Positions 4,769-61,646 of a stretch of 64,000 nucleotides of DNA are shown here, one piece after another (the first letter of the stretch is position 1; every line of letters starts with the position of its first letter). A program made the translations under genes and the position numbers. The DNA is from Cyanidioschyzon merolae (lineage: Eukaryota), in assembly GCA_000091205.1 (NCBI GenBank), contig AP006499.2. One strand, given 5' to 3'. The notes beneath the pieces are model-generated. The model ran no database searches and had not been told where the DNA came from. It worked only from the letters and a program-made list of their open reading frames with translations.

Positions 4769-4821
4769 TTCACTGGTTTGACGCGCCTTTCCAAAAAGCG
4801 TTTTTCAGGGCCAACACCTCA

Positions 4822-4845: not shown

Positions 4846-6242
4846 GAGATACTCGGTCAGCGCCAGCAGCGCCAGTATGTACTGTGGCTCGCACGTGCAG
4901 CAAAGGAAAAGTTTTGGCTTCACTGTAACCAGACAATACAACGACGCACATGGAATGGGAGATTCTAGCTGGGACCCTGTATGCCCCGGGCGCACGCTCG
5001 ACTTGAGCATTTGTCTCCAAGCAATGCTCGTAAGCGGGCAGTTGAACTCTATCGGAAACAGTAGAAAGCAGCAGTTTATAAAGTTCTCTATGCAGCGTCG
5101 GCAACGCGTCGAGACTATTCATGACACGAGAACTCCGCTGGAATCAACAGAAACCAGCTATTTCAAAAGTCCTCCGTACACACCCAAGATGCTGGTAGGC
5201 ATGCCCTCGTGCTTATCTTCCTCAGGAAAAGCGGTCCAGTGAATCGGACGGAGTCGCCGCCGCCGCCGCCGCCGCCTCTACTCAGGCTAGACCATGAACG
5301 AAACCGAACAGCGATCGACCGCGGCATTATCCGCACACAGCGTCCACTACTGTATCACAAATAAAAATAGCAAAGGTCGACGACGAGCTTCGCGGTTCAC
5401 TGTATACTGTCGCTTTTCGAAGCGTCGCTTACATAGGCTCGTCTGCTCATGCGGAGGAGCGTCATTGCATGCGTGCTCGTGCTTGCACACAAGGCTGTGC
5501 CTGAGGCGTCGCTCGGCATGGATATCAAGTTCCATCCTTCGTCTCGATTAGTGTCCAGTCGAGCTGCATACTCTTTGTGACAACCAGTCTCCAGGTCGTT
5601 GTAGACGCCACATCGAACGGAGCGTCTATGATGAGGTGCTCGAGCAATCGAAGCAGCAACATCCGGTAGAAACGTAAAGCCTGCAGTTTTCCCACAATAT
5701 CGACGATAAACCTTCGCATTAGCGCTCTCCGACCGCACTCAGTGTCGCTCACGAAACTCGAGGATATCGTGCTGCTGAGAAACGAACGCTGTTCGCCTTG
5801 CTTGCCACCCTATCGCACTCAGAGAAAAACAGCACTGCACGAACACACAGTTGCAGCAGAGGAAAGGCTGGCGCCCTCGTCGAACTGTCCCTTTCGGAAA
5901 CGCTCACTTGTGCGCCTGCTCTTGGCGCATGTTACGCTCAAACCGGAGAACAGCCCTTCGGGTTTCCTCCAGCCAGAACTTGACGTTCGGTACTCGGTAC
6001 TGCTGAGCAACGTACATACCTGTACAGGTACCCATTAGGAATACAAAAGTTACCGTGGCAATTGACATTGCGCACAGTGGACGATTTGTACTGCAAAACG
6101 TGTGTCCAGGTGCGAAACGAAACACGAAACTGCGAACGAAAAAACGGACGGGAGTGTTCTGCGCCAGCGCCGCGCCGATCGTGAAGCCCTCCGTACACTC
6201 GCCGCGAATCGCAGGCTATGCTCCTGCCTGATGGGAATGAAT

Positions 6243-9524: not shown

Positions 9525-11453
9525 ATGAACGTACATGAATGGACAAAGAAGTACGCACACTGTCATAGGAGACCGTCACGCAGTGAACTACTCAATATCC
9601 ATCTAGTATTAGAACGCGAATGCGTATCCCAGGAGGCAGGCGGCATCGTTTCGCTCGAGGAGACCTCGTTCAGGGGAAACGGTAGCGCCGCACAGTGGTA
9701 CGCAAAGAGGGGCAAACCGCTGTTTGTAAAACAGGTACTCTCGAGCACTCCAACAACATTAGCCCTTGCGGATTTTCAATCGTAGAGTTACGACGAAATC
9801 GCCAAATGAGCAAGATCGTTCAGCACCACTCCATTAACTGAAGCACGCTTCATGGTGCCTGCTTCTCAAAGTCTTCTCGCTGCCCGTATGACACTGCCGC
9901 TTTCCAACACTCGAAAGCAGCCAGGGAGTGCGTGGCTCAGATCGACATTGACAAGCACTTCGTGCCAGCGTATTCTGCCTGGTTCAATACAAACCAATGT
10001 ATCTTCTCTGTTGTCATACGCCATTTTGATGTTCTAAGACGCATGGACGAATCGTTTGCAACCGTGGCGTCGCTCGTCATCAAGTCGTTGTGTACCTTTG
10101 CCAGCCGTGAACTACGGTGCTGCCCCTGTGCTCTTGCGGGGCAGCAATCGAAAAGATTTGCCTCGGTCAGTGGATATATGCTGGTGACGGCGACGGTGAC
10201 GAGCTTGTAGTTAAGGCGTAGTGGATATACAAAGACGAACGGAGAGCTTCGGTGATGCTGCCAAACTAGTACTTCTGAATTCCGCGAAGAAATCAGGTAT
10301 AGAGCATGTCGATTACATGCGTGTCGCCCCGGCACGTAGAGGAAGCAGGTTACTATTGCACTAGTCTCCGCGAGCAACAAGGAAGCGTTCTCACGACCTC
10401 GCGCAGAGCGCTGGCAGAGCTTGATGAAGATTTCTCGCTTAGAGGGAGGAAGTGGGAAGGGTTTTTAAAGAATGATAGAGGGCAACAGAGTATCGAGCTG
10501 CAAAGCCTTTGTCAAAAATTGGCATGTGTCGCGCGACGAGACTCATGTTCAGGTGTTCAGGATAGATGAAGAGCAAGACTTTATGATCAGTGTGGATCCC
10601 GGATTCAACAACTTAATCGCTGTAGCTGTCCCTCTACATCCAGAGGACAGAGCTGAAAATCTGAACGGCGTGAAGTTGTACCAGATCAACTTTTCCAGGC
10701 CTGGGTACCAACAAGAGTCGGGTATGGCAGACTCAAGGCGGCATACCAACAACTTGAATGATTGTGTCAGGACTGGTCTCGACGCTGTGTGCACCGTGTC
10801 GTGCAGCGTGCGCTGCTTTGCACGCTTCATTTAGAGAGTACATCAGCGTAAAAGTGGCTCGTGCGGACGATCTTTGGCTGGAGTATGCGACTTCGTGCTA
10901 TGACCGCCAATGGATTGGGGTTTACTGAGGCAGGGAACGTGCGTCCGCCAACGTCTTCAATGAGTTGGACAAAGAAATGACCGATACGTATTATCGTTTG
11001 GCGTCAGCCTATCACGCAAGACGTGCTGAGGCGCGAAAGGAGTGCATCTCTGATCCTTTGATGAGCGCGTTCAACGAGTGCACGAATCGATGCTGCACGA
11101 CTCGCGTCGATGAGTTCAGGACTGCATTCATGCATCAGGGGCGCGGCCGCACATTGGAGTAGGCAGAGAAGGGGCGCGTGAAGAAGAGACGGACGCACGA
11201 GGTGGTATGCGGTAAGCTGATCGAACGTCAGGTGACGAGGGAATCAAAATTGAGAGGCTTCCCATGTCGTACTTCCACCGGCAAGCATGCGCGCAGGCAC
11301 TCTCTGCACCAAAGCTTGAAAGCCTCGATCAACCTGCGAAATTGTTCCGTGCTTCCGGAGCGCCCAGCGCCTTTGTGTCGAGCAGATAATCGAGGGAATC
11401 GTTTATTGGTGAGGTCGGGGATTTTGCTGACACACACGGAATACTTTCGATAA
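9525..11453 (+). mobile_element. degenerate Fanzor/TnpB-like (IS200/IS605 OrfB, RuvC-fold) element, copy D. It is pseudogenised and split over 5 or more frames
   Basis: ORF 10472..10834 contains VQVFRIDEEQDFMISVDPGFNNLIAVAVP, the RuvC-I G-I-D-P-G block with Asp intact. ORF 11178..11453 contains KHARRHSLHQSLKASINLRNCSVLPERPAPLCRADNRGNRLL. That is a degenerate RuvC-III DFNAAINIRRCAxL...ANF block in which the Asp is replaced by Ser. ORFs 9525.., 9932.., 10306.. and 10965.. cover the N-terminal and linker regions in other frames. Confidence 0.6.
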
Positions 11454-23335: not shown

Positions 23336-24691
23336 CACGGAACTGCTCGATCTAATCATGTCTTGCGAATTTTTCCAAACTTGTATCGATATGCAGCCTC
23401 GACTTTCCAAGTGCAGCGATACTGGTTTACGGGTTCATTTGTCGTTTTTAGGATGATCGGTCGTGGTTTCGGTGTGGTGCATGCGACTATCTGGCGCTGG
23501 ATCTCGCTAGGTGACTGGAATCAAGATCATTGGCGGCATTCGCGACTAAGGGCTCGTAACATAACCGACATGATCACAGCGTTCAGACGTGCAAGCCTCC
23601 AGGATTCTCCTTTTATTACGTGTTGTATACGCGAATCATAATTTTCATTCATGTTTCCGATCTTTCTGTTTCAAGGCAAGTTGGTTGTGCAGCAATGCGC
23701 TCCGCTGGATTGGCGATGAAGGGATCTCGACGTCGTCTCATTACGACTTGTAGAATATGTTATTTCAATCGCTCACTGGACTTGCAAACTCAAATAAGCG
23801 ATCCCTGGTTGAAAGACAAACACCCTAATCTTCGCGCCCGTCGACGAGACGGTATGCGGCACCAGCACCCTGATACCTCGCACGGGACAGGCTGCCAGAG
23901 GCTCCCGAGTCGCCTGTTCGCAAGCGCAGAAAAGCGCCCTGGACGCTGGGTTCAGTCGTCGCAGCGACCGCTGCCGGTGTAGCGCTCGTCACCGCTTTGC
24001 ATGGAGTGAGCGTGCATCGCTCAATATACTTCGACTTGTCCTTCGAGCTGCGCTTTCCTTCGGGTAGTTGCTTCATCGTGGACAACATCGCGCTCCACGT
24101 ACCGTCTACCGAAAGGAACAGCGTACGCTTCCATGTAAAACAGGCGGCGTGCTCCCCGAGAGGATCGCCCAGCACAAGCCCGTGATCGCTGCGTGCGACA
24201 CTGGGCTCGGAAATGGAGCACGGCATCCAAGGCAGCCTTCTTCATTCGTCAAGGGCATGTACTGAGCGACGAGGCAAGCGTGCGCACGCCACTGGGTGCT
24301 TCTCCAGTGAGAACGTACGGCGTACGTGTGAGAGCACCTGATCACAGTTTCGTGTTACCGCTGCGAAGGACGCCACGAGTCTCTATGAAGACAAAATGAA
24401 AATCGCGAGCGAAGCAACGTTTCCAATTCCAGTCTGTGCATGGAATGCGTTGTCAACAGCGCGCAGCGACGGCTTCGGGGCCTGAACGCTGCCATCACCA
24501 TCGGTCGACTGCTGGCATCGAAGCAGGCGGGACACCAGAGACCAGCGTATATCAACATCTGATGCAAGAACTAGGAACAAGGACCCGTCGCAGAGGAGGC
24601 CCGCAAAGGCCGGTGTTGATGACGGGCGGAAGCGACGCTGACGTTCGATAGTACGTCCGAGTTGGAGGACCCGTTCCATTTTATTTTGCAA
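23336..24691. repeat. R-family dispersed repeat, copy R2 (1356 bp). It is about 99% identical to 6243..7598 and in the same orientation
   Basis: See R1. The boundaries are where identity with the R1 flanks is lost (gaaatggag|cacggaactgctcg on the left and ccgttccattttattttgc|aaggggtacagc on the right). Confidence 0.9.
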
Positions 24692-26823: not shown

Positions 26824-27177
26824 GACCGCTTCTCGGAACGTAACCGGCGACACACGGCGAAACCAGGAGGCTTTCAAACTGGCCTAGAGAAGAACGCCTT
26901 CATACGCAGGTGCCCGATGAAAAAAGATTCGCACGCCCACACCCCTGGAAACAAACGTCTTTTAAAAGAAAAAAGTTGCTGCCAGTGGTACAGCAGTGGC
27001 AAACACGCCCTATACAAGAAGTCACCAACTGACTTGCAGACGCCTCCCAGTTTTTTTTCGACCGGCCGCCTACTACTGGTTTCAACTTTTTCTCATATAA
27101 TGCCACTTTGAGAGGTTGTCCAATAAAGTTCCCTCTTGTCGACTCTGAAGGTTTTTTCTCCATCGCCGCACATCTCC

Positions 27178-29287
27178 TTATACATTGATCGCGGCATGAA
27201 AGCCACGGTTCACAAACTCCATACGTTTCCTGCCATCTTTGGTTGTACTTGTCAATGCAAGTAGTCCACGAACTTTCGCCATCCTTTCCATATGCTCTTC
27301 CGTCAGCGGACCGTATTTTGCTATTTCCTCAGGGCTCCGCTGACACTTTTCCATCTCCACTCCCTGAAGTGTACAACCCAGCTAATGGTGTGTATAGGAC
27401 GTTCGGAACTCATCCATCGGTATTGTAACAAAACGCCGTGCACACTCTTTGAATGTTCTTGTCGTTGGAGCTGGCGTAGTCCCTTTTTGGGTCATCTAGC
27501 GCCCTGCTCCGTACGCCACTACCAGCCTCTGATTTTCATCCTCCTTCAAGGCGCTCAACGCATTGAAAAAATTCGCGAACGCCCGCTGCTTCCCGCATTA
27601 CATATTCATACGCAAACGAACCCACCGAGGCTTTGTATACTCCTCCCACAGCGCATCCCAATGGGCAACACGAACTTCCATGAATTTCCGAAAAGCTTCA
27701 AAGTCCGCTCTTCGGCTCGCTCAAAGCTTCCAGGTGATCCTTCATTCCTGCATTCCGTGTCTCGATTCTCTTCCTCGCATTCATGATTCCCGATTCTCGA
27801 TAGTATCTCGCTCACGAGAACCTCAAAAGACGCATATCTTTCTGACGTAAGTTGCCGTTGTTAGCAACTTCTGCACGCTTGGGTGCAGCGATGGTTACGA
27901 TATTCGTATTCCCAGGGTTCGTGCCAATGACAAAATCGTTATCCTCTACATCCTGCGTGGCAAGATACGCCTCCTTCTCATCTCCACGCTTCGTCACGGC
28001 CGCAGCCGAGGGCGGAACTCGACGATCTGCCTCCAAACGCCGATAGTGAACACACTTGGATACTTCACCGGTTTCGATCATCCTAGTGAATACCTTTTGT
28101 TTGCTCGTATTGAGAAGTTTGAAATTGAGGATATTCTTCCAGTACGTCTCACGGTTTTCGCCGGAGAATTCCCGCCTGCTGGCATTGACCTCCGGACTGG
28201 TCTCCCTCATGATGCCGTGAAGGATTCTGGAGTCGATAGTCACGAAATGTGGCTTGATGTTCCACAATGGAACTACGTTGAAACGCTTCCCCATTAGGGC
28301 AGCCTTCCGTCTCTTCCATTCTCCATTTCTCTCCTCTCTCAGCTTCATCTCTGCCTTGCGTTCGAGTTCTCGGTCCAAAAACACGAAATAGCGTAACATG
28401 AGGCGATAGTATCTTTCCTTATCTTTTTTCAACGCTGATATCTTTTCTGCTGGATTTGCCAGCCCCAGTACCGCACGATGCTCTTTAATAGCCGCACGGA
28501 TGACGGAATCTTTATTCTTTCTCCTGTGTGACGCCATCTCTCCGACGAATTCGGTCTCATCTTTATGTTGGCAATCGTTCGTGATGCCATCGATACTGGC
28601 CCATATCCCCTGGCAAGAGAGACCCCGGTGCAGCGCAAAGATGGAGCGTATCAGAAAGCATTCGAGGTTCAAGGTCATAGGGTCCCTCAGGTTCGTGAGG
28701 TACTTCATCGCCCCATGGCAGTAAATATTCCCGTCACCGCTGTATCGAGTACCCTCGCAGCGGCATTCCGCGAAGTTTTCCTGGAGGACATGCACTCGCT
28801 CATTTCTCCAAGACGTTTCCGCTGTGCCAACCATCAGGTGGCGAATAACGGTCTTGTCGAAAAATTCCACCCGCACCTCGACCGTTTTGATGTCCGTCAC
28901 GTCTTCGTTCATCTTCCTCACCAAATGCATTATTCTTGCAAAAGCCTTGCAATCGCTCATGCAGTAGTGCGCGATACGGTCTCTGAGATCCTCCCGCAAA
29001 TTTTGCTTCTACGGATTCATGATATGCTTGAGACGACAGGCTTTCGGTACTATTTCGACGTAGTGTCGTCTTTCCTCGAGCCATTGGCGTCGGGCCGCCT
29101 GCCTTAGCTTCTTCGTCTCATCCTGTTCCTCTCTGCTCTGCACTGTTTTTTCTTTGTTTCCGCCTGCCGGCGGTAATAGCCCTCTAGGATCCTCCACTTC
29201 CATGTCCAAACTTCCCTTTTTCATTTTTGAAAACGAATGCACTTTGAACTCCCCTGCTATAAACCCCGAAAACTCACTTGAATACAC
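27178..29287 (-). mobile_element. degenerate Fanzor/TnpB-like element, copy A. It has the longest surviving ORF (395 aa) but mutated catalytic sites
   Basis: ORF 27812..28999 ends ...[42 protein letters not shown]. That is the RuvC-I block with Asp replaced by Asn (GTNPG instead of G-I-D-P-G). ORF 27178..27360, MAKVRGLLALTSTTKDGRKRMEFVNRGFHAAINV, is the RuvC-III block with Asp replaced by Gly and an immediate stop. Frame breaks occur at about 29009/28999, 27812 and 27606-27360. The N-terminal ~350 aa aligns with the N-terminal fragments of copies B and C. Confidence 0.65.
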
Positions 29288-29699
29288 TCACTTGAGGGTT
29301 GAAACAAAACTGAAATAAAAGACTGTATTTTTCGACGACTTCAACATCGTCGCAGCTTGTACTTTAGAACGAGAAGTCAACGAATATTCAGGATCGCGTT
29401 TCGCTTCAACGGCGAGATGCGCGTCGTGTCCCATGTATACCAGGTATGGAGGTGCGTCTATCGACCGCGCTACATAGAACAAATAACAGAGACTAACGAT
29501 CAAGTATCAACGATATAGAGATTTATTCCCCCTCGATGATAAATGTGAAGAGAGGAAAAAGCTTTCAGTATTGTCGAAGGCCTACCCTCGAGGCGGAAGG
29601 TCCCGCGAGCCGGACAAGTCTGCCAAGCTTGCGCTCTGTGCGACTCTGCAGTTGCGGGTACTTTAGCGAGACCTAAGCTGAAACTCGTACGCAACGCAA

Positions 29700-29930
29700 T
29701 TCTTTCTGGTGCGAGGGGCAGCTAAGCTCCGTCTGGGCGTCGCCCTGGTCGCAGTGGTCTCCAAGTATATCGCTTCGCGCTGCCATAGGCAGCACGTCTA
29801 TCTGCGCAGCTTGCTTGCCCCCAGAATCATGATGCATCCCGATTAGGTATTGCGTGAACCACACCTCGAGCAGACGCCCTCCGTAGTACGGCAAAGCCGT
29901 TGTATCCCCATGTTGCATCTGCTCCAATGG
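29700..29930. repeat. ~230-bp segment related to 48190..48400 (about 75% identity, same orientation)
   Basis: ccgtctgggcgtcgccctggtcg...gtgaaccacacctcgagcagacgccctccgtagtacggcaaagccgt here, versus ggcgtctgggcatcgccctgacc...catgaaccacacctcgagctggcgccttccgtagtatggcgaaaccgc at 48.2-48.4 kb. Minus-strand ORFs 29673..29927 and 48032..48424 share PYYGGRLLEVWF / PYYGRRQLEVWF and QAAQIDV / QAAQIDL. It lies about 400 bp beyond the 5' end of Fanzor-like copy A. Confidence 0.7.
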
Positions 29931-30743
29931 TTTCGTCGTTATTGTGGGTGCTTAAAGCAGACACTCGGCGTTCCTTAGAACTCAAGGAACTACCAGCATA
30001 TCCAAAATGAAATATAAGTTATGGAACTTGAAGGTACGTTGCATCATGCTGGAAGCTTTCCCCACAGCCATGATCCATCCCGCAATCTGGGCCCCATGCG
30101 CAATGAAAGCGTTTTGCCATCAAAAAACGCGACCCGTACCGAACGTTCACGACATTTTTAAACGAATGCACAACTAGCTGCGAAGGCGCAATTCTTGTAT
30201 GCACTTGCTGTCCAGCGCAGCGACAGTTTGGAGCTACCAAGCGCTTGGACCTGGAAGCGTCTTCCGCATCTTTGCGATTTCGAGTGCACGGCAGAGCGGT
30301 GAAGGAAAAGCGTCTAGAACGAAGCTGCGTGTGAAACGCAAGCGTCCCAGCGTACGATGGTACCAGCGAGCGGCTCAGGAGGTCACTTTCAGGCCAAGGC
30401 GGTGTGATAGCTATCGACTCGAAAACGCTCGCAACTGTTCGAGACCCAGCGCCCTTTAAACTCGTGGTCGAAGCACTGGTGCTTTCTGCGTTTTCTGCTG
30501 TGCTGCCACTTGGCTGCTGTTCTCGTCAGTTAACTGGACCAGTTCGCCAAAGTACCAGGTTGTGGCACTGTGCTTGCAGCTGGGAGCGCGGATCGAATCG
30601 TCTGAACCACGTCACCAGCGGCACGCTCTTGTCCGTCTTGTTTATCTCGCGCGTCGTTGCGAGAGCTCGCGGAGTTGCATGGCACACGCTTTGATAGAGG
30701 TCTGGACTGGGGCGAGCGCATCCCCGCCGAGCATCTTCAACTA

Positions 30744-36399: not shown

Positions 36400-37300
36400 A
36401 CGGATCGTTCAAATTGGGCGTACACTGTACGCCCTGGGTATCGTTCTAGTGTCATCGACACAGGCCTGTGGAGACTTTTTCATTTCTGAGACCGCTTCCT
36501 TCATCGCCCTCTTGTCTACGGCTCGAAATGAGGCGGGCTCTCCGGTCCTTCCTGCTCGGTTGTCGGCAATGGAAAGATGTTGAAGGCAGCGTTTCAAGTC
36601 CAGATTTCGCAGATTCGGACTGCTGCCAACGCAGTTCATGCAGAGGCGGAAGTTGCGCTCTACGCTTCGCTTGCCATTTTCACCTGATTGGTAGGGAGCC
36701 ATGGTATGCGCTTCGCAACGGTGACAGTAAAATGTACTCTTGTGTTCTGGTATGCCCATTATACGTTCTGCGTCGAGGAGCCTCCTGTGGTGCGTGAAGA
36801 CTTGCTCCATAGCTCGGTACATGACAGGTACCGAGGACTCGCATCGATGCCAGCTTCCGTTTCCGTACCGAGTCCTAGACGCTTTGATGACGGTAATCGT
36901 CTGGATGATCTCTTCGACAAGCTCTCCGTCTGCTGCACACGCAAGCGGATGCTGTACAATTGGATAGAGGATTTGTTCAACGCGACATTGCCCATTAGAG
37001 AACAAGTACCCGGAAGAAAATCCAGGCTGGAGAAACATTCGAGAAAATTTGAACCGTGTACACTCACCTCATGCAAAGCGGTGATGCGCTCTGCACAGGA
37101 AGCGATCGCTGTGATGCCTGCATTCCTAGTCCAAGGCCCTTTTCCATGGAAAAGGAGGCAATGGGTGCTTCTGAAAGCATTTCCCGTTGGATATTTCATG
37201 CTGCTGTTGCGCTCAGCTTCGTCGATAGCGATAAATAGAAAAAGGAGGGATTGGTCTTTCGGATAGAATCGACGTTGATTGGACGTGACAAGTTTCGTCA
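36400..37300. repeat. R-family repeat, diverged copy R3 (about 75% identity to the central part of R1, inverted orientation)
   Basis: Plus-strand ORF 36688..37266 (...REQVPGRKSRLEKHSRKFEPCTLTSCKAVMRSA...) aligns with minus-strand R1 ORF 6732..7133 (...MKQLPEGKRRSKDKSKYIERCTLTPCKAVTSAT...). The reverse complement of 37090-37140 aligns with R1 7038-7100 (ccatg.aaaa ... gatcgct). The boundaries are approximate. Confidence 0.6.
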
Positions 37301-37489: not shown

Positions 37490-38771
37490 CTTCGAGACTG
37501 AGAAGCTGCCCTACAAAGTTTGCTCGCGTCAGCTCATCGGGTCTTGTCTCCAGAACCGCACATCGTATGATATTGATGGCGGCGTTGAAGTCTTTGTTCG
37601 CGAACTCCATGCGTTTGTTGCCGCTGTTTGAACTCATCAATGCAAGGGTTGCTAGAACCCGCGTCCTGTGTGCCACCTGCTGCTCTTTCAGCAATCCGTG
37701 CTTTTCCATCGCCGAAGCCCTCCGCTGTGTTCTCCCTATCTCGACCATCTGGTGTGTATAACCCAGCTCATGCCTTAGATTTTTCATTTCTCAAAATGAA
37801 TGGGCTTCTTTATGCCCGTAGCTAAGGACCTTCCCCGAGGAAGAAGGACATGTTCAAGAAAAACGACATATGCCTCGGCGTGCCATCGTGTGCTGAAAGC
37901 TTCGGCAATTCGCCCCGTGGAGCGATCATTGCGTTTCAGGACAGAATACACTCCTTCAATGGGGCTGAATCACGGAGCGTATGGAGGAATGGAAGGCAGC
38001 TCTACTCCCAGATAGTATCGGCAAAATCTGGAACTCAAGGGGAATGGTAAAATACTACGTTGTTCAATAGAAGGACGTTGCCGGACTTGAGGAAAAAATG
38101 TTCAACAATTCGACAAAGTGTTCGCTGCTATTGAATGAGCCTTCTCAACGAGCGAATATGAGGACGCCAAATGAATCCACTCCAGCTAGAACAGATGATG
38201 ATGTCCTCGTTCTCCTCGAGCTCGATCTTGTATACAATGAGCTCTATCTCCGAGAAAATAAACATATACGATTGGACCGTTTCGTCTGAAGCAGTTCTCA
38301 TCGGCTGAAAAACAAACCGACGTGCCTGTGCTTCACACGAATCGAGAGGTCCCATGCATGTTGTCGCTGCGATCTCGGTGGAAGATAGCCGTTTTCGTGA
38401 ACCAGGACTGGTTTTGTATGAATGTATCCCGAGTTTCCAGGATCACACGAGCAAGCTGGTGAGAAACAGAGACACCCGCAATAACTACTATTATCGCGTC
38501 GCTTTCCTTAAAGCAATCAAGTGGTCGTTTTTCTAACATGGCCGACAACAAAGTTTTTACCAGTACCTGTTTTTGGAGCAGAGCGCGCATACCTGTTTCT
38601 TTCAGTGTTCTCGACCATCCTAGTATAGTAGTATGACTGACCTGAAGAAGGAATGCAGCCCTCGTTACCATGATCAGTAAATAATATGTATCGTGCATGC
38701 ATTTCGTCTACGATCGAATCGATACAAAGCATAGAAATGTCGATCTCGTACGATACACTGCGAAGAGGCAT
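37490..38771 (-). mobile_element. degenerate Fanzor/TnpB-like element, copy B
   Basis: ORF 36759..37787 begins MKNLRHELGYTHQMVEIGRTQRRASAMEKHGLLKEQQVAHRTRVLATLALMSSNSGNKRMEFANKDFNAAINIIRCAVLETRPDELTRANFVGQLLSLEVYGEKLIPKASRRSKK. That is an intact RuvC-III D-x-N-A-A-x-N-I block plus the family C-terminal tail. The rest of that ORF is read-through into the inverted R3 repeat. Upstream fragments are ORF 38128..38355 (...IELIVYKIELEENEDIIICSSWSGF, the RuvC-I position with the Asp lost), 38333..38698 and 38517..38771 (N-terminal region). There is a stop two codons upstream of the 37787 ATG. Confidence 0.6.
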
Positions 38772-39018
38772 TTGATGACACGCAGCAGGCGCGAAACAAA
38801 ACTGACGTGAAAGACTATAACAATATGCATATAATTGCTACAATCTGCCTTTTTTGAGACAATCGCTCCTGAACGTCCCTGTGCGCTTACCAGCGAGCGT
38901 CAGCAGGCGCGCGCCTTGTACCCAGATCCGCCGTGGGGCGCCTGTCGGAGGTCGCCGCTACGCGACCGTATCTGCGAGCCACCACGCTGACCTGCACACT
39001 GCTGCATGCGTAGACGGT

Positions 39019-42899: not shown

Positions 42900-43520
42900 A
42901 GTTTTCATGGAACGGGGTCTTGGACCTCGACTTGAGTCATCGAAGCGATCGTTACCAGGGGAGCGCGCGTCACCGCTTCGCAAAAAAGGAGCATGAACGG
43001 ATCGAAATTACTCGATTTTTCCTCCAAACTGGATTTCTGTTTTCGCACTTGTTCCATCGCAGAAAACATTGCGCTCCATAAACCCTCAGTAGAATGGAAC
43101 AACGTGCGCCGGATTGTGCGATCGATAGAGAACTTGTCGGGGAATCGTCCAGAAAAAGCCCGTGATCGCTGGTACAGCGTCGAGGGCGTTATCGAAGGAG
43201 GGTATCGACCATCATCCGCTGTGCTCGTCAAGGGCATGTACCGAGTGATAAAGCGTGCCTTTATGCGCCATAGGCCGGTGCCCAGAGAAGTACATACGGT
43301 GGACATGTCGGAACGCATTCAAGTTTCGCGGCTGCGACAGATTCTATACAAAGAAGATAAAAACGAGAATCGAATCGTAGATTGCAACTTTTGCATCTGC
43401 ATGAAATGCGTAAACAACATACGGAAGCCGATTAGGTATGCCGGTAGCACTCGTATGAATATCCTTCGACTGCTGACAAAAGAGCAGGAGCAACGAGAGA
43501 ATCCGGCGGATTGAAAGCCC
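42900..43520. repeat. R-family repeat, diverged copy R4 (same orientation as R1/R2)
   Basis: Minus ORF 42905..43318 (...TRYMPLTSTADDG...RTLFHSTEGLWSAMFSAMEQV...FDPFMLLFCEAVTRAP) aligns with R1 ORFs 7013..7252 and 6732..7133 (AQYMPLTNEEG...RTLFLSVDGTWSAMLSTMKQL...IERCTLTPCKAVTSAT). Plus ORF 42993..43514 (NIALHKPSVEWNNVRR...PSSAVLVKGMY) aligns with R1 plus ORFs 6904.. and 6975.. (NIALHVPSTERNSVRF...PSSFVKGMY). The shared 16-mer aagcccgtgatcgctg is present. In R4 the two R1 frames are in one frame. Confidence 0.6.
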
Positions 43521-47528: not shown

Positions 47529-48189
47529 GACCGCCAAGCTCAAGCCCTAAAACGAAACTCTTGTTCAAGAGTCTCTCGCAAAGCGAGCACTAATCACGCT
47601 GCAAACCACCAACACACATGCACGATCTATGTCTTTGTCAACTGAACGAAGCTCCATGCCAGGGCGAGCCACGTGTACGAGGACTGCGAGCGCGACGCCG
47701 CACGTCCGTCCGCCGCTCGAACACGACATGCGGCACGCGTGCGAAACGACGCCTGGCACCGGCTGCAAACACGCGATCGCCACGCGCGGCACACGCTGGG
47801 AATCGCTTCCGAGAGCAGTGCATGGTGATTATGGGCGTTTGTTACCATGAAGTTCAGAAAGGTGGAGATTCGTGATTCTAGCTCTGCGATTCGTCGAACA
47901 GTGCCCAGTGCGCAGCGCGCACGATGGGGCAACGCCGGCTGTCATCAGCGCCTCGAAGCAATTGAACAGCAGCTCGAAGGCACGACGAGTAGAAACTGAC
48001 CATTTACTAGGAACGAAGGGAGAGTGCTTCGTTATCCATGCGCGGCAAGGGATGAGAGGTGGTAGATTTTTGCGTGAATAGGAAACTTTACTTGGTGGGC
48101 GTAAGCTCCCGCGATCCGGGCTCGTACGCGGTGCGTACCCGCAGTGGCGAGTGCGTTGGCGACGCCCGAGCAGTTCGTCCGCAACCCAG

Positions 48190-48400
48190 TGTTTTCTGGG
48201 ACGAGGAGAAAGGTGCCTGGCGTCTGGGCATCGCCCTGACCTCTATCGTCCTGTAGCGTGTCGTTTCGTGCTATCTCGAGCACTAGGTCTATTTGAGCGG
48301 CCTGCGGGATCCCGGGATAACGAAGCAATTCGAACACGAGTCTCATGAACCACACCTCGAGCTGGCGCCTTCCGTAGTATGGCGAAACCGCTCCGTATTC
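48190..48400. repeat. ~210-bp segment related to 29700..29930
   Basis: See 29700..29930. Minus ORF 48032..48424 carries PYYGRRQLEVWF...QAAQIDLVLEIARNDTLQDDRGQGDAQT, parallel to PYYGGRLLEVWF...QAAQIDVLPMAARSDILGDHCDQGDAQT. Confidence 0.65.
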
Positions 48401-49266
48401 TTGCTGTGTCCGTAGCGGTGCCACAGGTGCTACTGGGAGCGCTCAAGCCAAGCTCGGCGCACGATAAAACGTACGAAAAGAAGTATCTCCGAGAGGAAGT
48501 ATGCGAAATCGAACTGGGAGGTCTGGGGCCGTATAATGGTCGCTTTCCAGAATACGAATATCCATCGCGCAATCGAGGATCTCTGGTCGGTGGAAACGTT
48601 ACGCTTATCGAGAACATCAACGGCCGCACGTCGCTCAGGCGAGCAGTGTTTCCCAGTGTGCTGCTCATCCTGCGCTGGCAGCGTCACCGGTGCACGCAAC
48701 GCGCACGTGCAGTTGCTGGACGCCAAGAACGCCCAGAGCGTGCCCTGAAGCGGACAAGGTATCTAACAGGCCTCACACTGTCCAGAACAGTTGTAAAAAG
48801 CCGTTGGCCATGCCCACGCGTACCAATCCCCTGCTCCTGATACGAGCAGACGCGGACCGAGCGACACACAGTCGGCACAGCGCGCTGCGCTGTAGCCTGG
48901 TCCGAAACTTGAACCCTGGTGTCGGTCGGCGGCCAAACTGGCTAAGCTGCAGCGTTCGAGTCGGGTACCACGGCAACGATCTGCAACGAGCTCGACGGAC
49001 CGCAGAGGCTCCTGCATCATCTCTAGAGCCGGCGCGAGCGGGCAGGCAAGCGAGCTCGTGCGTGCACTCGACAGACGGTGCTCGCTGAAACGGCGTGACA
49101 CCTCGAAGGCACCTAGCGCACGCGCCGTACGAACTCGTTCACCATCGTGCGGCAGTGACGTCATGCATTGGATGTAGACCAGATCGCAGACCTCGACATA
49201 CGCTGCGCTCAATGTGATCCTTCAATCTCTCAAGCTCGAGCATGCGCGTGCGAACAAGCACCAGAC

Positions 49267-54361: not shown

Positions 54362-56030
54362 GCCGAAGTGTAGACTCCTTTTCGGACTCTGCTCGAGGCA
54401 CAATACTCCTAAACGAGGAGGTCACAGATAATCCGCGTGCGAACATTCCCGGCCTCGGCGGCTGCGTCCGATCGGCGAAGAGGAAATCCCTTAAATAGGC
54501 GAAGGTAAATTCCATATTACATGGCGCGTCCAACTTTAGCCCATTTTCCGCCGTAGAAAGACGCAGGATCGAGCCAGGCTCATTCGAATACGCAAATGCA
54601 GCCGGGAACCACAGAAGAGGCCTCGAATGCTCTCCAGATGCTTCAAAGCTCCATGAGCCGAAGCGCAGACTTCCCGTTGGTCGTCCTGGTTCGATCAGTC
54701 TTACGATGCTTGTCCTCTGGGAGACGCACCAACCGTCAATGGTTGTTTCGGCGCTTGAAGCCGCAATGCCATACTCGTCGTGTGGAAACAGAGCGCTTTT
54801 CGTCTTCCTGACGGAAGCCTGCCTGAGACTTGCACCCATCTGTGAAGTCAACGAAGCGACTTCGAGCCGCACCAGTTGAAGTTGCCCGCAGGAGGAAGCG
54901 GAGGATACCACACGCCCAAACGTTTAGCGTTCAGAGGTCCGTAACGAGGCATGAACTCTGGATACACCTTGAGCATATCGCAGCTGCCGGGCACAGTTGC
55001 TGGTGCTGGTTCGGACAAAACGAGCGATGACGCTGGACGCGTGGCTCGCCGTTTACGAGGATCAAAACTGAACATGTGTTGGCGAGGGGCGTTAACCATG
55101 TGCGAACCCGCGTACCCTGATCTTCCGAGACTCGCGATGCCCCAGCTTAGCCAGGCGCACTCCGTCGCCCATGTTCCCGAAATAGTGTCGCATGCGGGCG
55201 TCTCTTTGGTCTCTGAGATCGGAGGAGTCTAATTGCGTGCGAGGATAATCGACAGGGATGTGGCTTCAGATCAAGTGCCAACGAGCGGCAAGCTCCAGTT
55301 AAGAGACGAATCTTCATGAGCGCCGAGCCGACTGCCACGGACATGTAGCACCGCTTTGCAAACAGAGGGATAATCGGGAATGATGCTCTTGTGCACAGAA
55401 TTCTCTATCGTGCAACGATACCGCTAATGGTGTTGCGAATACGACCATGGTCAGTCGCTTCTGCTCTGGAGACCGAAGCTCAGGCCCGCGCTTCGTGCGG
55501 CAAACCCTCGTCTGCCGAACGATACACTGTCCTGAGCTCATTGGAAGTATCGGTGGCGTCGCAGCAGAGCTGGGTAGAATCTCGTGCATGTCGGGCGGGG
55601 AGCGGGCCTCATCAAACGGATCCAGGAAACACCAACAATGGACATGATTGTCCCTATACTCAATCTAGATGGACGCGGATGCATGCGATGACGCGTGATT
55701 CGCAGACATAAACTGGAATGTCATAAGACATAAATATACAAAACTACCAAGAGTCCGAGAGCGCGCTTCTGCGCCCCGTAGCGCTAGACGCAACGTGCGG
55801 CACATATTCGAACGCGGTTGCGCTTTCGGACACGTATCCACCAGGTGTGCCCGAGAGATCCTGCGTACTTCTTTTGTCGCAAACAGAGCGAAGAAGCGTC
55901 TACTGTCACCGAAGGCACGCAGTTGGCGGAACCTGGTGTGCAAGCGTCAGCGTGCTGTCACTCTTGGACCAGAGAAGCAGTGCTGTTGACGAGCGCTGGT
56001 GTTTCGGGGTCACCTGCTCCGGGAGCCGCC

Positions 56031-59000
56031 ATGTCGGCGGCTGTGCACTACAAGTTCCGCTCTGCGAAACACTTTGGTCGGGTGCAGTTTGAGGGGGACT
56101 TTATTCAGCTCGCAGAGCTAAAAGTAGCCATTGTGGAGCAAGAAAAACTGCAGTTTGGCGAGGACTTTGACTTACAAGTAGTTGACGCACAAACCCAGGA
56201 AGAGTACTACGACGAAGAAACCTTGATACCGAAGAACACTTCGGTTATCGTGAAACGAGTGCCTGCTGGCCAGAAGCAGGGCATATTGAGTCAGATCGCA
56301 CTCGCAAGGAAAAATGAGCGCTTCGCTGAGATTCTCGACCGCTCAACCGGCGGCACGGGTGCCACAGCGGGCGCTATTGCTGCAGCTGCACGGCAGGTGC
56401 TTGCTGGCAACCTGGGACCCAGCACAACCGCGAACACAGGCATGACGGGCAGTGAACCTGTCCGGCTCCGTCGAGGTGACGAAGACACGCGCCTTGCCTC
56501 CGTGGCCCTCGCAGCTGGCGCAGGAGACTCGGGCCCGAATCCACGAAACATCCAGCGTCCAGGCGGCCGCGTAACGGCCTCGGGAGCGATGGATGGGCCA
56601 CCGCCGGGTGCGCAGCCACCGCCAGGTTATATCTGTCACCGCTGCGGAGAGCCAGGCCATTATATCCAACACTGCACGGCAAACCTGGAAGGCGATGTGA
56701 ATATCATTCGTGTGAAGCGACCAACTGGCATTCCGCGGAGCATGCTAAAAACGATTGATGCACCTGTAGATGGAGGGACCGAGCTTCAGCTTCCAGGTGG
56801 TAAATTCGTGACCCTAGCCACAGACGATCGTGAGTTCAGCAAAGAACCCCTGGCGGTGCGAATGGCGCGCCTTGCGGAAGCACGAGCGGGGGCACGCGAG
56901 GACAATACCATCGCTTCCGACGTTACGACGATACAAGGATCCGAGACGAAGCAACCAGTGCCCATGGATAAAAAGGAATCGGAAACAACTCGTCGCCAAG
57001 TTGCTGCTTCCGATGCGCCATCGGAGAGCGCGGCGTCATCGCCGCGAGGCTCCACGCCAACAGACTCGGTGGAAAACGCTCAGCTGTTACCAGCAGATAT
57101 ACGCCCCGATTTACCCTACTTCCCGTTACCAGGAATGGATCAGAAGGAACATTTCTTTGGGACAGGCGAACTGCCCACCGCGCGTGAGTTCCAGGAAGTA
57201 ATCTGGGGTATTATTTTGATGAATAGGGATCAGCATCCAGAACTTGGGCATGACATGGAGACGGGAACTCAACGCGATGTGACGCGGGATTCGGCGGCAG
57301 CGCTCCAGCCTGAGCCCAGATCCATGGAAAGCGCTGAAGCGCCGAGCACGACAAATGAGCGTGCTGTATCAGCACAGCCGCGGCCGCGGATGACTGCTTC
57401 TGCAGAAGGAGAAAGCTACCAGGAGCGCCGGCCGCAGGCGCACGAACGAAAGACACCCACGCATGTGCAGGATGTATCCAAGCGTTCTCCAACATCTGAA
57501 GCACAAAACGTACCCGAACGAGGCGACAGAGATCCCGACAAATCAGCGCCTCGAAGTGGAAGCGTCGCCAATGCGCGTCCGATACCCTCCAGCTTCAAAT
57601 CCACAGAGACCGCGAATCATCATCTAGACGCAGAAAGGCCAAGACCAGGGCGTCGATCGTCGGCGCTCCAGGTGACGTCGATGGAACCCTCAGGTGCACC
57701 ATTTGGCGAAATCGAGTACTCGCGTGTGTCGACCAAGAATCAGCGCTTGCTACCGCCGGATCGGAAGGCTACTGAAAGCGCTCAAGCAACAGCCCCGAAC
57801 TACGGAAATTCATTGCCGAGGAAACAAGCTGCCTTTGCCCGCAGTGGAAAGATGACTGGGAATACCACGAGACCGGGGCTGCCTCTTGCGCCGCTCCAAA
57901 CGCAGCAGCAGCAGCAGCACCAGCAGCAGCAGCAGCACCAGCAGCGACAGACGCATGTGCAACGCTTTCAGGCTGCAAACCAACACGGCAACGAGGCAGC
58001 GAGCGTGGATAAACAGCACCCCTTGGACAGAGGTCAGCATGCCATGCAGAGAACGGAGCCTGCGCGAGAACGTCGACAACCTACTGTTGCAGCCGCCGAC
58101 AGGAATGCGGTATCGCGAGGCGTTCCGACTTCGAGGGCGACCTCTTCTGGTGTCACAGCAACGGGCTCTACCGCGCCCGTTCGTACCAAAATGCCGCCAC
58201 GAATGCCGCATCAGAGACCAGATGAGGATACGCTGGGTCACAGGCATCATGCAGCGTCGGACACGGAGCAAAAACCTGCCCAGTTGAACGCAAACCTCTC
58301 TCAGCCGCAACCGCTGAGCGTGTCGCGTGCTCGAGAGCGATCAGGTCTGGGAAAAAGCGCTCGGCACTCGCCGGCACCCGTGGCACCTGCTCTGCATGGA
58401 ACAACCCGAAAGCACCCGCGGGCTAGCGACTCGTCACCAGGAACCGAGACGCGCGACTCAAGACCGATTCCAGTTTTTGCTCGTCTGGGCACGAGAGCAG
58501 AAGCTGCAGCGTCTACGCGCGCCCCAGCCTCTGTGCCCCAGCGGAGCACTACCGGGAGCATCGGGTCCGCGGAACGGAGGACGGTGCCGCCAGCGCATCC
58601 GCCTCCTGCAGACGCGTCGCAGCTCAAAGGCAAAAACTCCTCCCCGATGAATCAACAAGGCGAATATCTACACCGAGCGAGTGTACGCGCACCACCAAAG
58701 GTTCCGGAAAAGCGTCCGGCAGCGACAGCAGCTGTTGGCGACGACAAGCGCTCCCGGAACACGCCGAGCTCAGCCGAGCGGGCCGCCGCTAACGTCTTTG
58801 AACGATTAGGACCAGCGATACCGGTGCCTCCTCGTCTTGCTGGGCGTATTTCGAGCGGAAAAGTCAGCGACGGTGAACGCGGAGCGAACGCCTCTACCGG
58901 TGCATCTGGTGTGGTCGCCAACGACGCCTCGAAAACGAAAACGAACCTACGGGCAGTGCACGCGAAGCAGAGCGTCCCTATGACACAGCAAAAAACACCC

Positions 59001-59072
59001 GTGCCGACATATTCCTCGAGTGAAACAGGTTCAAGTCGTGCCCGGAACAGGGCTGCAAACTTGCCGTGGTAA
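56031..59072 (+). CDS. RBBP6/Mpe1-like protein. It has an N-terminal DWNN ubiquitin-like domain, a CCHC zinc knuckle, and a ~850-aa disordered tail with poly-Gln. No RING recognised
   Basis: The ORF opens at 55818, but the product starts at ATG 56031. MSAAVHYKFRSAKHFGRVQFEGDFIQLAELKVAIVEQEKLQFGEDFDLQVVDAQTQEEYYDEETLIPKNTSVIVKRVPA is colinear with the RBBP6 DWNN domain (MSCVHYKFSSKLNYDTVTFDGLHISLCDLKKQIMGREKL...DLQITNAQTKEEYTDDNALIPKNSSVIVRRIP). The zinc knuckle is CHRCGEPGHYIQHC. The remainder is S/P/R/A/Q-rich with QTQQQQQHQQQQQHQQRQ from the (CAG)n tract at 57897-57950. Confidence 0.7.
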   Translation: MSAAVHYKFRSAKHFGRVQFEGDFIQLAELKVAIVEQEKLQFGEDFDLQVVDAQTQEEYYDEETLIPKNTSVIVKRVPAGQKQGILSQIALARKNERFAEILDRSTGGTGATAGAIAAAARQVLAGNLGPSTTANTGMTGSEPVRLRRGDEDTRLASVALAAGAGDSGPNPRNIQRPGGRVTASGAMDGPPPGAQPPPGYICHRCGEPGHYIQHCTANLEGDVNIIRVKRPTGIPRSMLKTIDAPVDGGTELQLPGGKFVTLATDDREFSKEPLAVRMARLAEARAGAREDNTIASDVTTIQGSETKQPVPMDKKESETTRRQVAASDAPSESAASSPRGSTPTDSVENAQLLPADIRPDLPYFPLPGMDQKEHFFGTGELPTAREFQEVIWGIILMNRDQHPELGHDMETGTQRDVTRDSAAALQPEPRSMESAEAPSTTNERAVSAQPRPRMTASAEGESYQERRPQAHERKTPTHVQDVSKRSPTSEAQNVPERGDRDPDKSAPRSGSVANARPIPSSFKSTETANHHLDAERPRPGRRSSALQVTSMEPSGAPFGEIEYSRVSTKNQRLLPPDRKATESAQATAPNYGNSLPRKQAAFARSGKMTGNTTRPGLPLAPLQTQQQQQHQQQQQHQQRQTHVQRFQAANQHGNEAASVDKQHPLDRGQHAMQRTEPARERRQPTVAAADRNAVSRGVPTSRATSSGVTATGSTAPVRTKMPPRMPHQRPDEDTLGHRHHAASDTEQKPAQLNANLSQPQPLSVSRARERSGLGKSARHSPAPVAPALHGTTRKHPRASDSSPGTETRDSRPIPVFARLGTRAEAAASTRAPASVPQRSTTGSIGSAERRTVPPAHPPPADASQLKGKNSSPMNQQGEYLHRASVRAPPKVPEKRPAATAAVGDDKRSRNTPSSAERAAANVFERLGPAIPVPPRLAGRISSGKVSDGERGANASTGASGVVANDASKTKTNLRAVHAKQSVPMTQQKTPVPTYSSSETGSSRARNRAANLPW

Positions 59073-59149
59073 ACACAGCAACTGAATATGTTGGCGATGG
59101 TGTACCAGGAAGCGAAAACGTATCGCGAACATGGGGTAAATGAATATCC

Positions 59150-60070
59150 ACCCGGAGACATGTGCCTGCCTTTTTCGACCGGGCTCCTGCTGTCGGCTTT
59201 CGTTTTCTCCTTGCACACTTCGAACATCAGAGGCGGTGCGACGAAGTTAGGTTTCGTCAGCTCTGCGTGTCTCGTCTTGAGCGCTGCACATCTCCTGATA
59301 TTGATAGCAGCGTTGAAGTCTCGGTTCGCAGACTCCATGCGTGCAGTGCCTCTGGAGCTACTCACTCATGCAAGGAATGGTACAACTCGCGCCCTGTGTG
59401 CCACTACAGTCTCGTGATCGTCTCGTCGATGAAACACCTTTGCTCTCCGATTTCCCCTCATCTTCATCGTCAGTTGCTCTTCTTCGCTCGACGGTCGCAC
59501 AGAAGAGGATGTTTTCCGGTTTTATCGGATAGCCAGCGATGTCGGTCCTTCAGAATCCCCGAATTCCATGCTCATACCTTTCCCTTCTATTTTTATTTCT
59601 TCAAAAAAACACAGTTGTTTATGCCCTCAGATGAGGACCCTCCCGGAAGGAGACGGTCTTGCAGAAGAACGACGAAATGTGCCCTGGTATCACCGTGTGG
59701 TGAACGCTTCAGCGCTTGGCGCAGTGGCGCAATCACTAGGTTTCGTCATAGAAACGCCTGCTCTTCATAGGACTGAACCACCGAATGTACGGAGGAATAA
59801 AAAGCCGCTCTACCCTGACAGAATCAGCGATAGATCGAACGCAAGTGGAATGGAGAAATACCACAATATCCAACGGAAAGACGTCGTCAGACCTCAGGGA
59901 AAAGTCTTCAATTGTTCGATAAAATGGTTCGTGCTGTTGTATGAGCCTTCTCTACGAGCGAAACTGAGGTCGCCGAATGGTTCCACTCCCGCACGAACAG
60001 GTGGTGTCCTTGTTATCTACGAATTCGTTCGTTGAGAATATCAGTTTTTGGCGCTGATCGCATACGCTTC
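59150..60070 (-). mobile_element. degenerate Fanzor/TnpB-like element, copy C. It has an internal deletion and an in-frame stop, and abuts or overlaps the 3' end of the RBBP6-like gene
   Basis: Reverse-strand translation of 59520->59300 in one frame gives ...MKMRGNRRAKVFHRRDDHETVVAHRARVVPFLA*VSSSRGTARMESANRDFNAAINIRRCAALKTRHAELTKPNFVAPPLMFEVCKEKTKADSRS. A TGA interrupts the conserved block (the ORF-track 'M' at 59365 is the GTG that follows it). Upstream fragments in other frames (59880-60070) align with the N-terminal region of copy A (FVREWNHSATSVSLVEKAHTTARTILS ~ FVGEMASHRRKNKDSVIRAAIKEHRAVLG; VFPLDIVVFLHSTCVRSIA ~ [19 protein letters not shown]). The RuvC-I/II region is missing, a deletion of about 500 nt relative to copy A. 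Confidence 0.6.
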
Positions 60071-60761
60071 TTTCTTTCAGTATTCCTCAACTACCTGAGT
60101 TCGTATGGTATGGCTGACGTAAATGATGCATGCAGTCCTCCTTGCACTATTCAGTAAAAATATATCTCTGATAGACGATTCAATTACGATCCACACAGTA
60201 CATTGCATCGTGAGTCCGATCTCCTGCTCTGCACTGCGAAAAAAGCATTCGTTGACACGCAGGAACGTCGGAACGGAATTGACTTGAACAAATTCGCAGC
60301 TGAACATCAGCACCGATGCGCTGAGGTGAAGTGCCGCACAATGCAAAGTCGAGTGTCAGCGCTTGGCAGACGCAGTACTAGCTGCCGCAACGACCACAGG
60401 TTCTCGAGTTCGTGTCTGTGTGTCTGTGTGTGTGTGTCGGTAACCGTGACGTTCGAAACCTTCCGGAACACGCTCGCCGCAACGTGTTTCGAGTTCGTCG
60501 TCCCGTACTGACGTTTTCTGACGACAGAGTAGCGAGCTGGCGTTGACGTTTTGTTCGTGCCGTTTGGAAAGCGGCACCGGAAGCCGAGCCTTCCCCACGA
60601 CGCCCAGTTCCGCTGCGTGTTGTTGCGGTTCCGCGTAGCAGCTCGTTGAACGAGAAAACTGGGGTAGGGGCGCGTCAACGAGCACAGAGGTGGGTCAGGT
60701 TTCGCTTGTGAATAGCCGCACGCAGCCTGCACAACGTCTGCAGGTCGAGTGAACCGTCATT

Positions 60762-61646
60762 ATGGCTCATGAACCGTTAGAACCTACTGTAATCCAAGAG
60801 GATCATACAGTGAGCGTTCCTGTCGCGGAACAAGTGACACTGCGAGTTTTACCAGAGTGGGAGCAGATCTTTCCACCACCGACACTACGCTCTGCGAAAG
60901 AGAGCGACGCGCTCTCCGCCCTGGCTTCGATTCGTCTCTGTGTCTCCTTGGATAGCACTATCTCCGACCTTGAGGAGCAAGTCAGGCGCGCATATCTCCC
61001 CCGCTGCTGTGCGTGCCTGTCGCTTCCTGAAGAGCGCATCCATGAGGCCCTCGAGAGCGCACACATCCGCTATACCGCATCTGTATTAGATCCGCAGTGT
61101 ACACTCCGAGCGCTCCGTTTGGCATCTGGGACCACGCTACGGTGGTTACGAATCCATGACCCGGAATCGCCAGAGGCATCCGCGGCAGCGGTGCAGTTGC
61201 AGACAAGCGCTCCGCAGCAGCGGCGACGAAGAACAACCGTTCAGCGCTTGGAGCCGAATACTGGCTTGACCAGCGGCGGCGCTCGTGTTCTCGTATTTGG
61301 AGAGCACTTTCCCCCGGTAGCCAGAGTTCGTTTTGGACGGGTGGTGGTGAGCGCAAACCGCATCTCTGCGCAGTGCCTATCGTGTATAGCCCCAGCACAT
61401 GAGCCGGGTGTAGTTTGCGTCGAGGTAAGTACCAGGGCGACGACTGCTTCGGAGCAGGATGCGTGGACGCATGATCGCGTCACCTATACTTATGTGGGAT
61501 ACGAACGTCTGTCCATGATCCTTGCGGTGCATGCCGCGGAACGAAGAGCCGCTACCGCCCTCACTGAGACCCAGTCGCCGTGCAGAAGCTCGAGCGAACC
61601 CCTCTCCTGGCTGCGTCGCGACCCCGACGATGAAGACCGTCGTTGA
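60762..61646 (+). CDS. hypothetical protein with a C-terminal IPT/TIG-like beta-sandwich segment
   Basis: 294 aa, ATG start. VQRLEPNTGLTSGGARVLVFGEHFPPVARVRFGRVVVSANRISAQCLSCIAPAHEPGVVCVEVS matches the IPT/TIG pattern (I..i.P..G...GGT.i.I.G.nF......V.FG..........l.C..P....G.V.v.V). Assignment is tentative. Confidence 0.35.
   Translation: MAHEPLEPTVIQEDHTVSVPVAEQVTLRVLPEWEQIFPPPTLRSAKESDALSALASIRLCVSLDSTISDLEEQVRRAYLPRCCACLSLPEERIHEALESAHIRYTASVLDPQCTLRALRLASGTTLRWLRIHDPESPEASAAAVQLQTSAPQQRRRRTTVQRLEPNTGLTSGGARVLVFGEHFPPVARVRFGRVVVSANRISAQCLSCIAPAHEPGVVCVEVSTRATTASEQDAWTHDRVTYTYVGYERLSMILAVHAAERRAATALTETQSPCRSSSEPLSWLRRDPDDEDRR

Follow-up and report, generated by a model that had tools for sequence, protein, structure and literature searches.

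Between two host genes of the red alga Cyanidioschyzon merolae lies a degenerate stretch that resembles the end of a TnpB/Fanzor-like nuclease gene, and the locus raises the question of how this relic came to be there and whether it still matters for the gene whose 3′ end it faces. The window (the whole stretch of 64,000 nt analysed here) is part of nuclear chromosome 17 of C. merolae strain 10D, and seven of its ORFs are residue-for-residue matches of annotated C. merolae 10D proteins, from CMQ066C to CMQ081C. The relic, referred to here as copy C, lies in the 1,689-nt spacer that separates an RBBP6/Mpe1-like gene from its downstream neighbour:

55818-59072, plus strand: RBBP6/Mpe1-like ORF with DWNN and zf-CCHC_2 (zinc-knuckle) domains, ending in a TAA stop
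60762-61646, same strand as the RBBP6-like gene: CMQ081C, the downstream neighbour of that gene

The part of the spacer upstream of CMQ081C also holds an imperfect short (GT)n microsatellite (60416-60437). Besides copy C, tblastn and profile searches of the window detected three related stretches:

29155-27104, minus strand: copy A, a nearly full-length protein match
37778-37497, minus strand: copy B, a protein-level match
10358-11405, plus strand: a divergent fourth copy

The family to which copy C belongs is the Fanzor1 (TnpB-like) element family CMe-1A of C. merolae (Bao and Jurka, 2013, Mob DNA 4:12, PMC3627910). The available portion of that description gives ~150 copies that are ~80% identical to a ~3-kb consensus, without terminal inverted repeats (TIRs) and with target site duplications (TSDs) not determined; it treats the 5′ 635 bp as a separate repeat, TE-N2_CMe, and lists a single Fanzor1 family for C. 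merolae. The conceptual translation of copy A retrieved 65 homologous protein clusters, almost all from hot-spring metagenomes, and these proteins have long open ORFs, the longest of 752 aa. In metagenome contigs, >500 relatives were detected, and the scan returned 80 loci. The family alignment contains the conserved blocks DPG..., DEFRTS and RDFNAAINI, and the D..E..D positions of a RuvC domain (RuvC-I Asp, RuvC-II Glu, RuvC-III Asp) are conserved across it. A Pfam scan with a local copy of the database found no significant family for the conceptual translations of copies A, B and C or for the homologues, for which the database's precomputed label is PF26935 (DUF8286), a weak match only. Sequence and profile searches of the PDB with the family gave no match either, so that the family is tied to Fanzor by fold comparison only: with an AlphaFold model of the homologue P0053 (mean pLDDT 69), the top seven Foldseek matches were all Fanzor structures (E 1.5e-13 to 1.1e-11), from Spizellomyces, Parasitella and Guillardia, followed by Cas12f at E 1e-3. 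The precomputed label is thus no more than a weak DUF8286 match for a family that structure prediction identifies as Fanzor1.

The members of this family differ in preservation. As an element, copy A spans 26931-30130 on the minus strand and is a full-length CMe-1A copy of ~3.2 kb with several in-frame stops, two frameshifts and an Asp-to-Gly change in RuvC-III (NRGFHAAINV); its orthologue in a metagenome strain (L001) is ~97-99% identical. The fourth copy, a Fanzor1-like relic with one frameshift, matches positions 319-673 of the protein profile and resembles the distant homologue P0053 more than it does CMe-1A-type proteins, an indication of a second Fanzor1 lineage in C. merolae. Full-length metagenome members (L062 2611-2913, L018/L054 2762-2914) carry extra tandem copies of a ~75-nt in-frame repeat (profile 2149-2226; up to four copies seen), which encodes ...QKVQDNDLVVDA.KHEE.KEA... 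just upstream of RuvC-I and amounts to a variable-number repeat within the Fanzor ORF. Solo 3′-terminal fragments of the family occur as well (L018/L054 31-502, L033 321-474, L029 623-732). They begin at profile ~2767, ~2961 or ~3103, and each is followed, 20-900 nt downstream on its own strand, by a full-length copy; 5′-truncated 3′ ends thus seem to be common in the CMe-1A-type family.

The anatomy of copy C was resolved with a DNA profile of 3,231 positions built from 35 full-length elements, in which the ATG lies at 929, the stop codon at ~3139 and the end of conservation at ~3206-3215. Copy A matches this profile from 17 to 3221, which means that full-length copies in the window are detectable. 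Copy C matches two pieces only, 894-1028 (59612-59461, E 2.6e-10) and 2889-3111 (59377-59157, E 2.1e-28). The intervening ~1,860 profile positions (1029-2888), or 84% of the ORF, are absent. The RuvC-II Glu is located near profile position 2741, i.e., inside the gap, and RuvC-I and RuvC-II are therefore both gone; instead of a split RuvC domain, copy C holds RuvC-III (NRDFNAAINI) alone. The original prediction had put the loss at about 500 nt of the RuvC-I/II region, a figure that has to be raised to ~1.86 kb, and the stretch 59613-60070, which it had included in the degenerate gene, holds no Fanzor coding sequence, whether N-terminal or from RuvC-I/II. The element covers ~59110-60297 on the minus strand (~1.19 kb; the 5′ end is supported through copy B), with no TIR found at 59110/60297 and no flanking direct repeat (TSD). 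From its 5′ to its 3′ end, it consists of the following parts:

60223-60297, minus strand: 5′ terminal segment of the short-type element, profile ~806-879, inferred through copy B
59613-60222, minus strand: subfamily-specific internal segment of non-Fanzor sequence, common only to copy B and metagenome locus L097
59461-59612, minus strand: end of the 5′ UTR, ATG (59575-59573) and ~30 codons, by nhmmer
59414-59460, minus strand: deletion junction zone, the gap between profile positions 1028 and 2889
59183-59413, minus strand: C-terminal coding relic with RuvC-III (NRDFNAAINIRRC), protein profile 613-673, DNA profile 2889-3111
59110-59182, minus strand: degenerate ORF tail and short-type 3′ end, by five-copy alignment

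The outermost 5′ segment was assigned through its counterpart in copy B. Copy C 60044-60288 matches copy B 38569-38811 in blastn, and the copy B equivalent of 60223-60297 matches profile positions 807-879 (E 6e-4), although 60223-60297 of copy C itself gave no significant DNA profile match. In five-way alignments of short-type copies, the flanks upstream of ~60297 are unrelated, and similarity starts within this segment. For the internal segment, a blastn search with 59620-60300 against the first 83 fetched loci returned the copy B orthologue in L001 as its sole match, and L097 matches at 72-73% (4001-4405 and 4731-4918). Compared to B and L097, copy C is without ~330 nt at the junction 60030/60044, within the non-Fanzor internal segment. 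Three other readings of this region were discarded: a degenerate N-terminal or RuvC-I/II region is ruled out by a protein-profile search in all six frames, which found no Fanzor coding signal in 59414-60300; a segmental duplication behind copies B and C was dropped after the third copy, L097, turned up in a different context; and an opposite-strand ORF of 155 aa (59568-60035) was rejected as a gene, since copy B has no such ORF and the only paralogue, in L097, is 52% identical in amino acids at 73% DNA identity, as expected from neutral drift.

The start region was also recovered by a separate 5′ profile (59461-59612 matching 897-993, E 2.2e-9, nhmmer) and translates as MSMEFGDSEGPTSLAIR*NRKTSSSVRPSSEEE, compared to MKKQVDDPGGPVSPAARKKRKTVPSPEEKEE in the family. 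In the junction zone, these N-terminal codons are joined in frame to the C-terminal part across the missing portion of the ORF, with the exact breakpoint blurred by GA-rich low complexity. The C-terminal relic retains the last 75-95 codons of the family ORF. Protein-level homology ends near 59156, in agreement with the earlier placement of the family tail at about 59155; the nhmmer alignment reaches 59156-59157 (envelope to 59129-59143), and the alignment of the five short-type copies extends further, to ...ACGTTTTC at ~59110.

The interrupted reading frame that first drew attention to copy C is real. The minus strand reads ...ETVVAHRARVVPFLA*VSSSRGTARMESANRDFNAAINIRRCAALKTRHAELTKPNFVAPPLMFEVCKEKTKADSRS, with the TGA at 59368-59366, just upstream of the RuvC-III motif RDFNAAINI, and this codon aligns with a Leu that is conserved in copy A (LLALTS), in copy B (TLALMS) and in the rest of the family, as the comparison of the three copies had originally indicated. 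TGA ends seven of the 12 window host ORFs checked, and it is therefore a genuine stop in copy C. An assembly error, the proposed way in which the stop might be explained away, fails as well, since the TGA (TCA on the plus strand) is found in all seven orthologous contigs (99.2-99.5% identical), which come from independent assemblies of JGI and ENA metagenomes. With a second in-frame stop (TAA, 59524-59522), copy C has no uninterrupted ORF of the kind expected of a functional Fanzor1. At the same time, its C-terminal match is far above chance (protein profile E 2.6e-13, DNA profile E 2.1e-28), and copy C can indeed be described as the dead remnant of a TnpB/Fanzor-like family with a RuvC domain. 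The TGA nevertheless carries little weight in itself, because without RuvC-I and RuvC-II the reading frame was already non-functional.

The two-piece architecture of copy C (profile ~806-1090 joined to ~2766/2870-3120) recurs at the unrelated loci L062/L075, L067, copy B and L097. L062, for example, consists of profile 808-1093 plus 2871-3115; L062 and L075 are probably one locus in two samples. These short-type loci lie in different genomic contexts, with ~70-73% identity among B, C and L097 across 0.4-1.3 kb. The junction peptides of B, L075 and L067 resemble that of copy C (KVF.RRDD.ETVVA..ARV) in a continuous frame; the peptide is diverged among the short-type copies and absent from full-length copies. 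All short-type copies seen carry stop codons. The junction differs slightly between copies, in that copy B keeps ~10 more codons on the C-terminal side and lacks ~30 N-terminal codons, presumably by secondary small deletions, the alternative being independent breakpoints. With only ~5 independent loci, all with stops, the short-type consensus and the true termini are loosely defined: judged from few copies, the 5′ end falls at profile ~806 and the 3′ end ~60-100 nt short of the full-length terminus. In L097 (3614-5655), the B/C-type copy abuts an inverted TE-N2-like module (profile 21-736, opposite strand), which hints that the B/C-type element and the TE-N2-like repeat associate in more than one arrangement.

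The same architecture at four other loci makes it most likely that copy C belongs to a short non-autonomous subfamily and was already deleted on arrival, rather than decaying in place from a full-length copy. The original prediction favoured the latter course, a full-length Fanzor-like copy at this site that lost ~500 nt of its RuvC-I/II region and acquired a nonsense mutation. Copy C does have private lesions, namely its stop codons and the deletion of ~330 nt that are present in B and L097, as decay in place would produce. However, this deletion falls in non-Fanzor sequence, the loss from the ORF is of a different size, and the 5′-plus-3′ architecture is found at at least four other loci, which leaves decay in place very improbable. 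There is thus a high probability that copy C goes back to CMe-1A by way of a short non-autonomous subfamily, of which it is an old and inactive member.

A history in keeping with this reading would begin with a subfamily ancestor in which an in-frame internal deletion of ~1.86 kb removed the REC/WED regions, RuvC-I and RuvC-II but spared a 5′ segment that includes the start codon as well as ~300 nt at the 3′ end, which encode the RuvC-III region. The branch of B, C and L097 would then have gained an unrelated internal segment of 0.6-0.95 kb. After the split from Cyanidiococcus, a member of this branch, already carrying the deletion, presumably integrated ~37 nt behind the host stop, in the spacer that separates the RBBP6/Mpe1-like gene from CMQ081C. 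The TGA, the TAA and the ~330-nt deletion would represent later decay. The TGA would accordingly be one of these late changes to a frame from which no nuclease could ever have been made here. Today, copy C would encode nothing functional and be neutral, with a passive effect at most, as sequence for the 3′ flank or distal 3′ UTR of the host gene.

The relation of copy C to that gene was examined at the level of the 3′ end. Copy C lies immediately 3′ of the convergent RBBP6-like gene, as originally noted. The overlap of the two 3′ ends that had also been claimed does not extend to the coding sequence: the CDS ends at 59072, as predicted, with the stop TAA at 59070-59072, and between this stop and the end of the element lie ~37 nt by the multi-copy alignment or 85 nt by the profile, so that the CDS is untouched. 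Cyanidiococcus yangmingshanensis and a related genome have the same gene order as C. merolae, but their orthologous spacer measures 450-474 nt and contains no match to the Fanzor family. The difference in spacer length approximates the length of the element, and Cyanidiococcus therefore represents an empty site. Its spacer proved too diverged for an alignment aimed at the exact insertion site. A TE-derived host C-terminus was rejected, since the RBBP6-like protein ends in a conserved ...LPW* in Cyanidiococcus as well, where the element is absent.

An overlap with the 3′ UTR of the host gene is plausible from position. In C. merolae, 93% of primary poly(A) sites use UAAA as their signal, and the transcript is cleaved 3-35 nt behind it (Front Genet 2022, PMC8831791); two candidates lie near the host stop:

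59070-59073, plus strand: candidate poly(A) signal UAAA, formed by the host stop TAA
59137-59140, plus strand: UAAA, candidate for a distal poly(A) signal, 65 nt downstream of the host stop codon, inside the relic and antisense to its 3′ tail

With UAAA at both positions, the host mRNA may end shortly ahead of the relic or a short way into it, and a contribution of terminator or antisense sequence to the host gene, as originally proposed, is plausible on the grounds of location. Despite the reported 93%, most of the 12 host genes checked lack a UAAA in the first 300 nt behind the stop; in the RBBP6-like gene, two fall inside the first 70 nt.

A stronger version of this idea is that the relic has been co-opted, its antisense 3′ tail serving the RBBP6/Mpe1-like gene as distal poly(A) signal or cleavage region, as terminator or as antisense regulator. 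The short distance of ~37 nt between host stop and element end and a UAAA of the C. merolae type inside the relic (PMC8831791) are in line with co-option, as are the invariance of both UAAA motifs in the seven orthologous assemblies and the low polymorphism of the tail. Across the seven strains, the density of variable sites in the relic is comparable to that in neighbouring sequence. The Fanzor-tail part has two variable sites in 285 nt compared to ~6 expected from the surroundings (roughly P~0.06, Poisson estimate), a count too small to interpret and at most a weak hint of some constraint. However, the compared strains are >99% identical, so that invariance is of little weight; the UAAA that overlaps the stop could yield cleavage before the relic; and the Cyanidiococcus orthologues have the same C-terminus without the insertion. 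The relic is absent from that locus. Nothing points to selection on copy C for a role at the host 3′ end, and co-option is improbable.

Copy C might also have been retained for an RNA. In TnpB and Fanzor systems, the omega RNA arises from the 3′ region of the element. The 3′ UTR of the CMe-1A family (e.g., L005 3900-3984; copy A, window 26935-27020) has a covarying stem directly after the stop codon, in which one pair is CG in 16 sequences and GC in 12, and, ahead of the element end, a terminal hairpin of 15 bp, CGTCGTTCGA-CTT-TCGAACGGCG. In the full-length consensus, the 3′ end forms three stems, the terminal hairpin among them, and one of the stems covaries. The covarying stem and the terminal hairpin are candidate omega-RNA or transposition signals. 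Copy C could accordingly be a solo guide RNA element, whose retained 3′ segment encodes an omega-RNA-like scaffold used in trans by Fanzor1 proteins from intact copies; the consistent retention of the 3′ ~300 nt by short-type copies would suit such a role, as would the structured 3′ UTR of the family. However, the terminal hairpin is missing from both C and B, and the folding of their 3′ regions is matched by that of shuffled sequence (z -0.12 for copy C against shuffles; z -3.06 for the family consensus). The two copies are only ~70% identical to each other, the consensus fold of the whole region is weak across the family, with a covariation term of -0.6 kcal/mol, and an Rfam search of the copy C region returned no match. 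A guide function of copy C is extremely unlikely.

Elements of these alternatives might be combined. The short-type elements (C, B, L097, L062/L075 and L067) would constitute a Fanzor1-derived, MITE-like subfamily, for which no description was found in the available portions of the literature; in those of Bao and Jurka (2013, PMC3627910), TE-N2_CMe is the only related short element mentioned, and a short-type subfamily is not. Such an undescribed subfamily could have spread by means of its cis sequences and possibly an omega-RNA segment, and the antisense tail of copy C could in addition now provide the RBBP6/Mpe1-like gene, which encodes a factor of cleavage and polyadenylation, with a distal UAAA. 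It is unlikely that both hold together. If they did, the cis sequences or the omega-RNA-coding 3′ segment of short-type elements would be recognised by full-length CMe-1 elements.

Copy C as an old short-type copy is real but ordinary, a dead fragment of a Fanzor1 repeat family that was already catalogued in 2013. Its biological weight is small, and the analysis corrects the anatomy first proposed for it. The short deletion-derivative subfamily could help to define the parts of the element that are needed in cis, and the >500 hot-spring metagenome relatives, many with long open ORFs, are a resource for work on red-algal Fanzor nucleases. The window contains further repeats. At 47983-48603 (minus strand) lies a solo ~640-bp 5′ module that is TE-N2_CMe-like (E 3e-52), and the 5′ module of copy A (29459-30127) also matches the profile in inverted orientation and is thus partly palindromic. 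Another dispersed repeat family is represented at 36546-37211, 23859-24533, 6766-7440, 42902-43036 and 23-248; its copies are 63-71% identical, and it occurs immediately 3′ of copy B.

Compared to known systems, the family resembles the solved Fanzor1 proteins (SpuFz, 8GKH/9CEU; PpFz, 9CF0/9CF1; GtFz, 9CER) in the predicted fold of P0053, which aligns over ~650-800 columns with a probability of 1.0. It differs from them in a sequence identity of only 12-16% and in lacking the CxxC zinc-finger motif after the RuvC-II Glu (EFRTSYTHHELGC), and copy C keeps the RuvC-III part only. CMe-1A, as far as the available text of its description goes, shares with copy C the genome and the protein family (RuvC-III block RDFNAAINI and, for homologues, a Fanzor fold); it is likewise old, diverged and without TIRs or TSDs, and its described ~3-kb structure, including the 5′ TE-N2_CMe module of ~640 bp, is present in copy A. 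In contrast, copy C keeps only ~150 nt of the 5′ UTR/start region and ~300 nt of the 3′ end, lacks the TE-N2 module (no match to profile 15-656) as well as the terminal hairpin, and has an unrelated internal segment of ~610 nt; it is ~70% identical to other short-type copies, compared to the ~80% identity to the consensus stated for CMe-1A. Internally deleted non-autonomous DNA transposons, such as MITE-like elements and the PATEs derived from bacterial IS200/IS605, provide the third comparison. Unlike these derivatives, copy C is without TIRs or TSDs, and the termini of the short-type elements differ from those of full-length copies, beginning at profile ~806 instead of ~15 and ending before the terminal hairpin. 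Nevertheless, the dispersed short-type copies, in the same way as such derivatives, share one large internal deletion and keep a 5′ and a 3′ part of the parental sequence.
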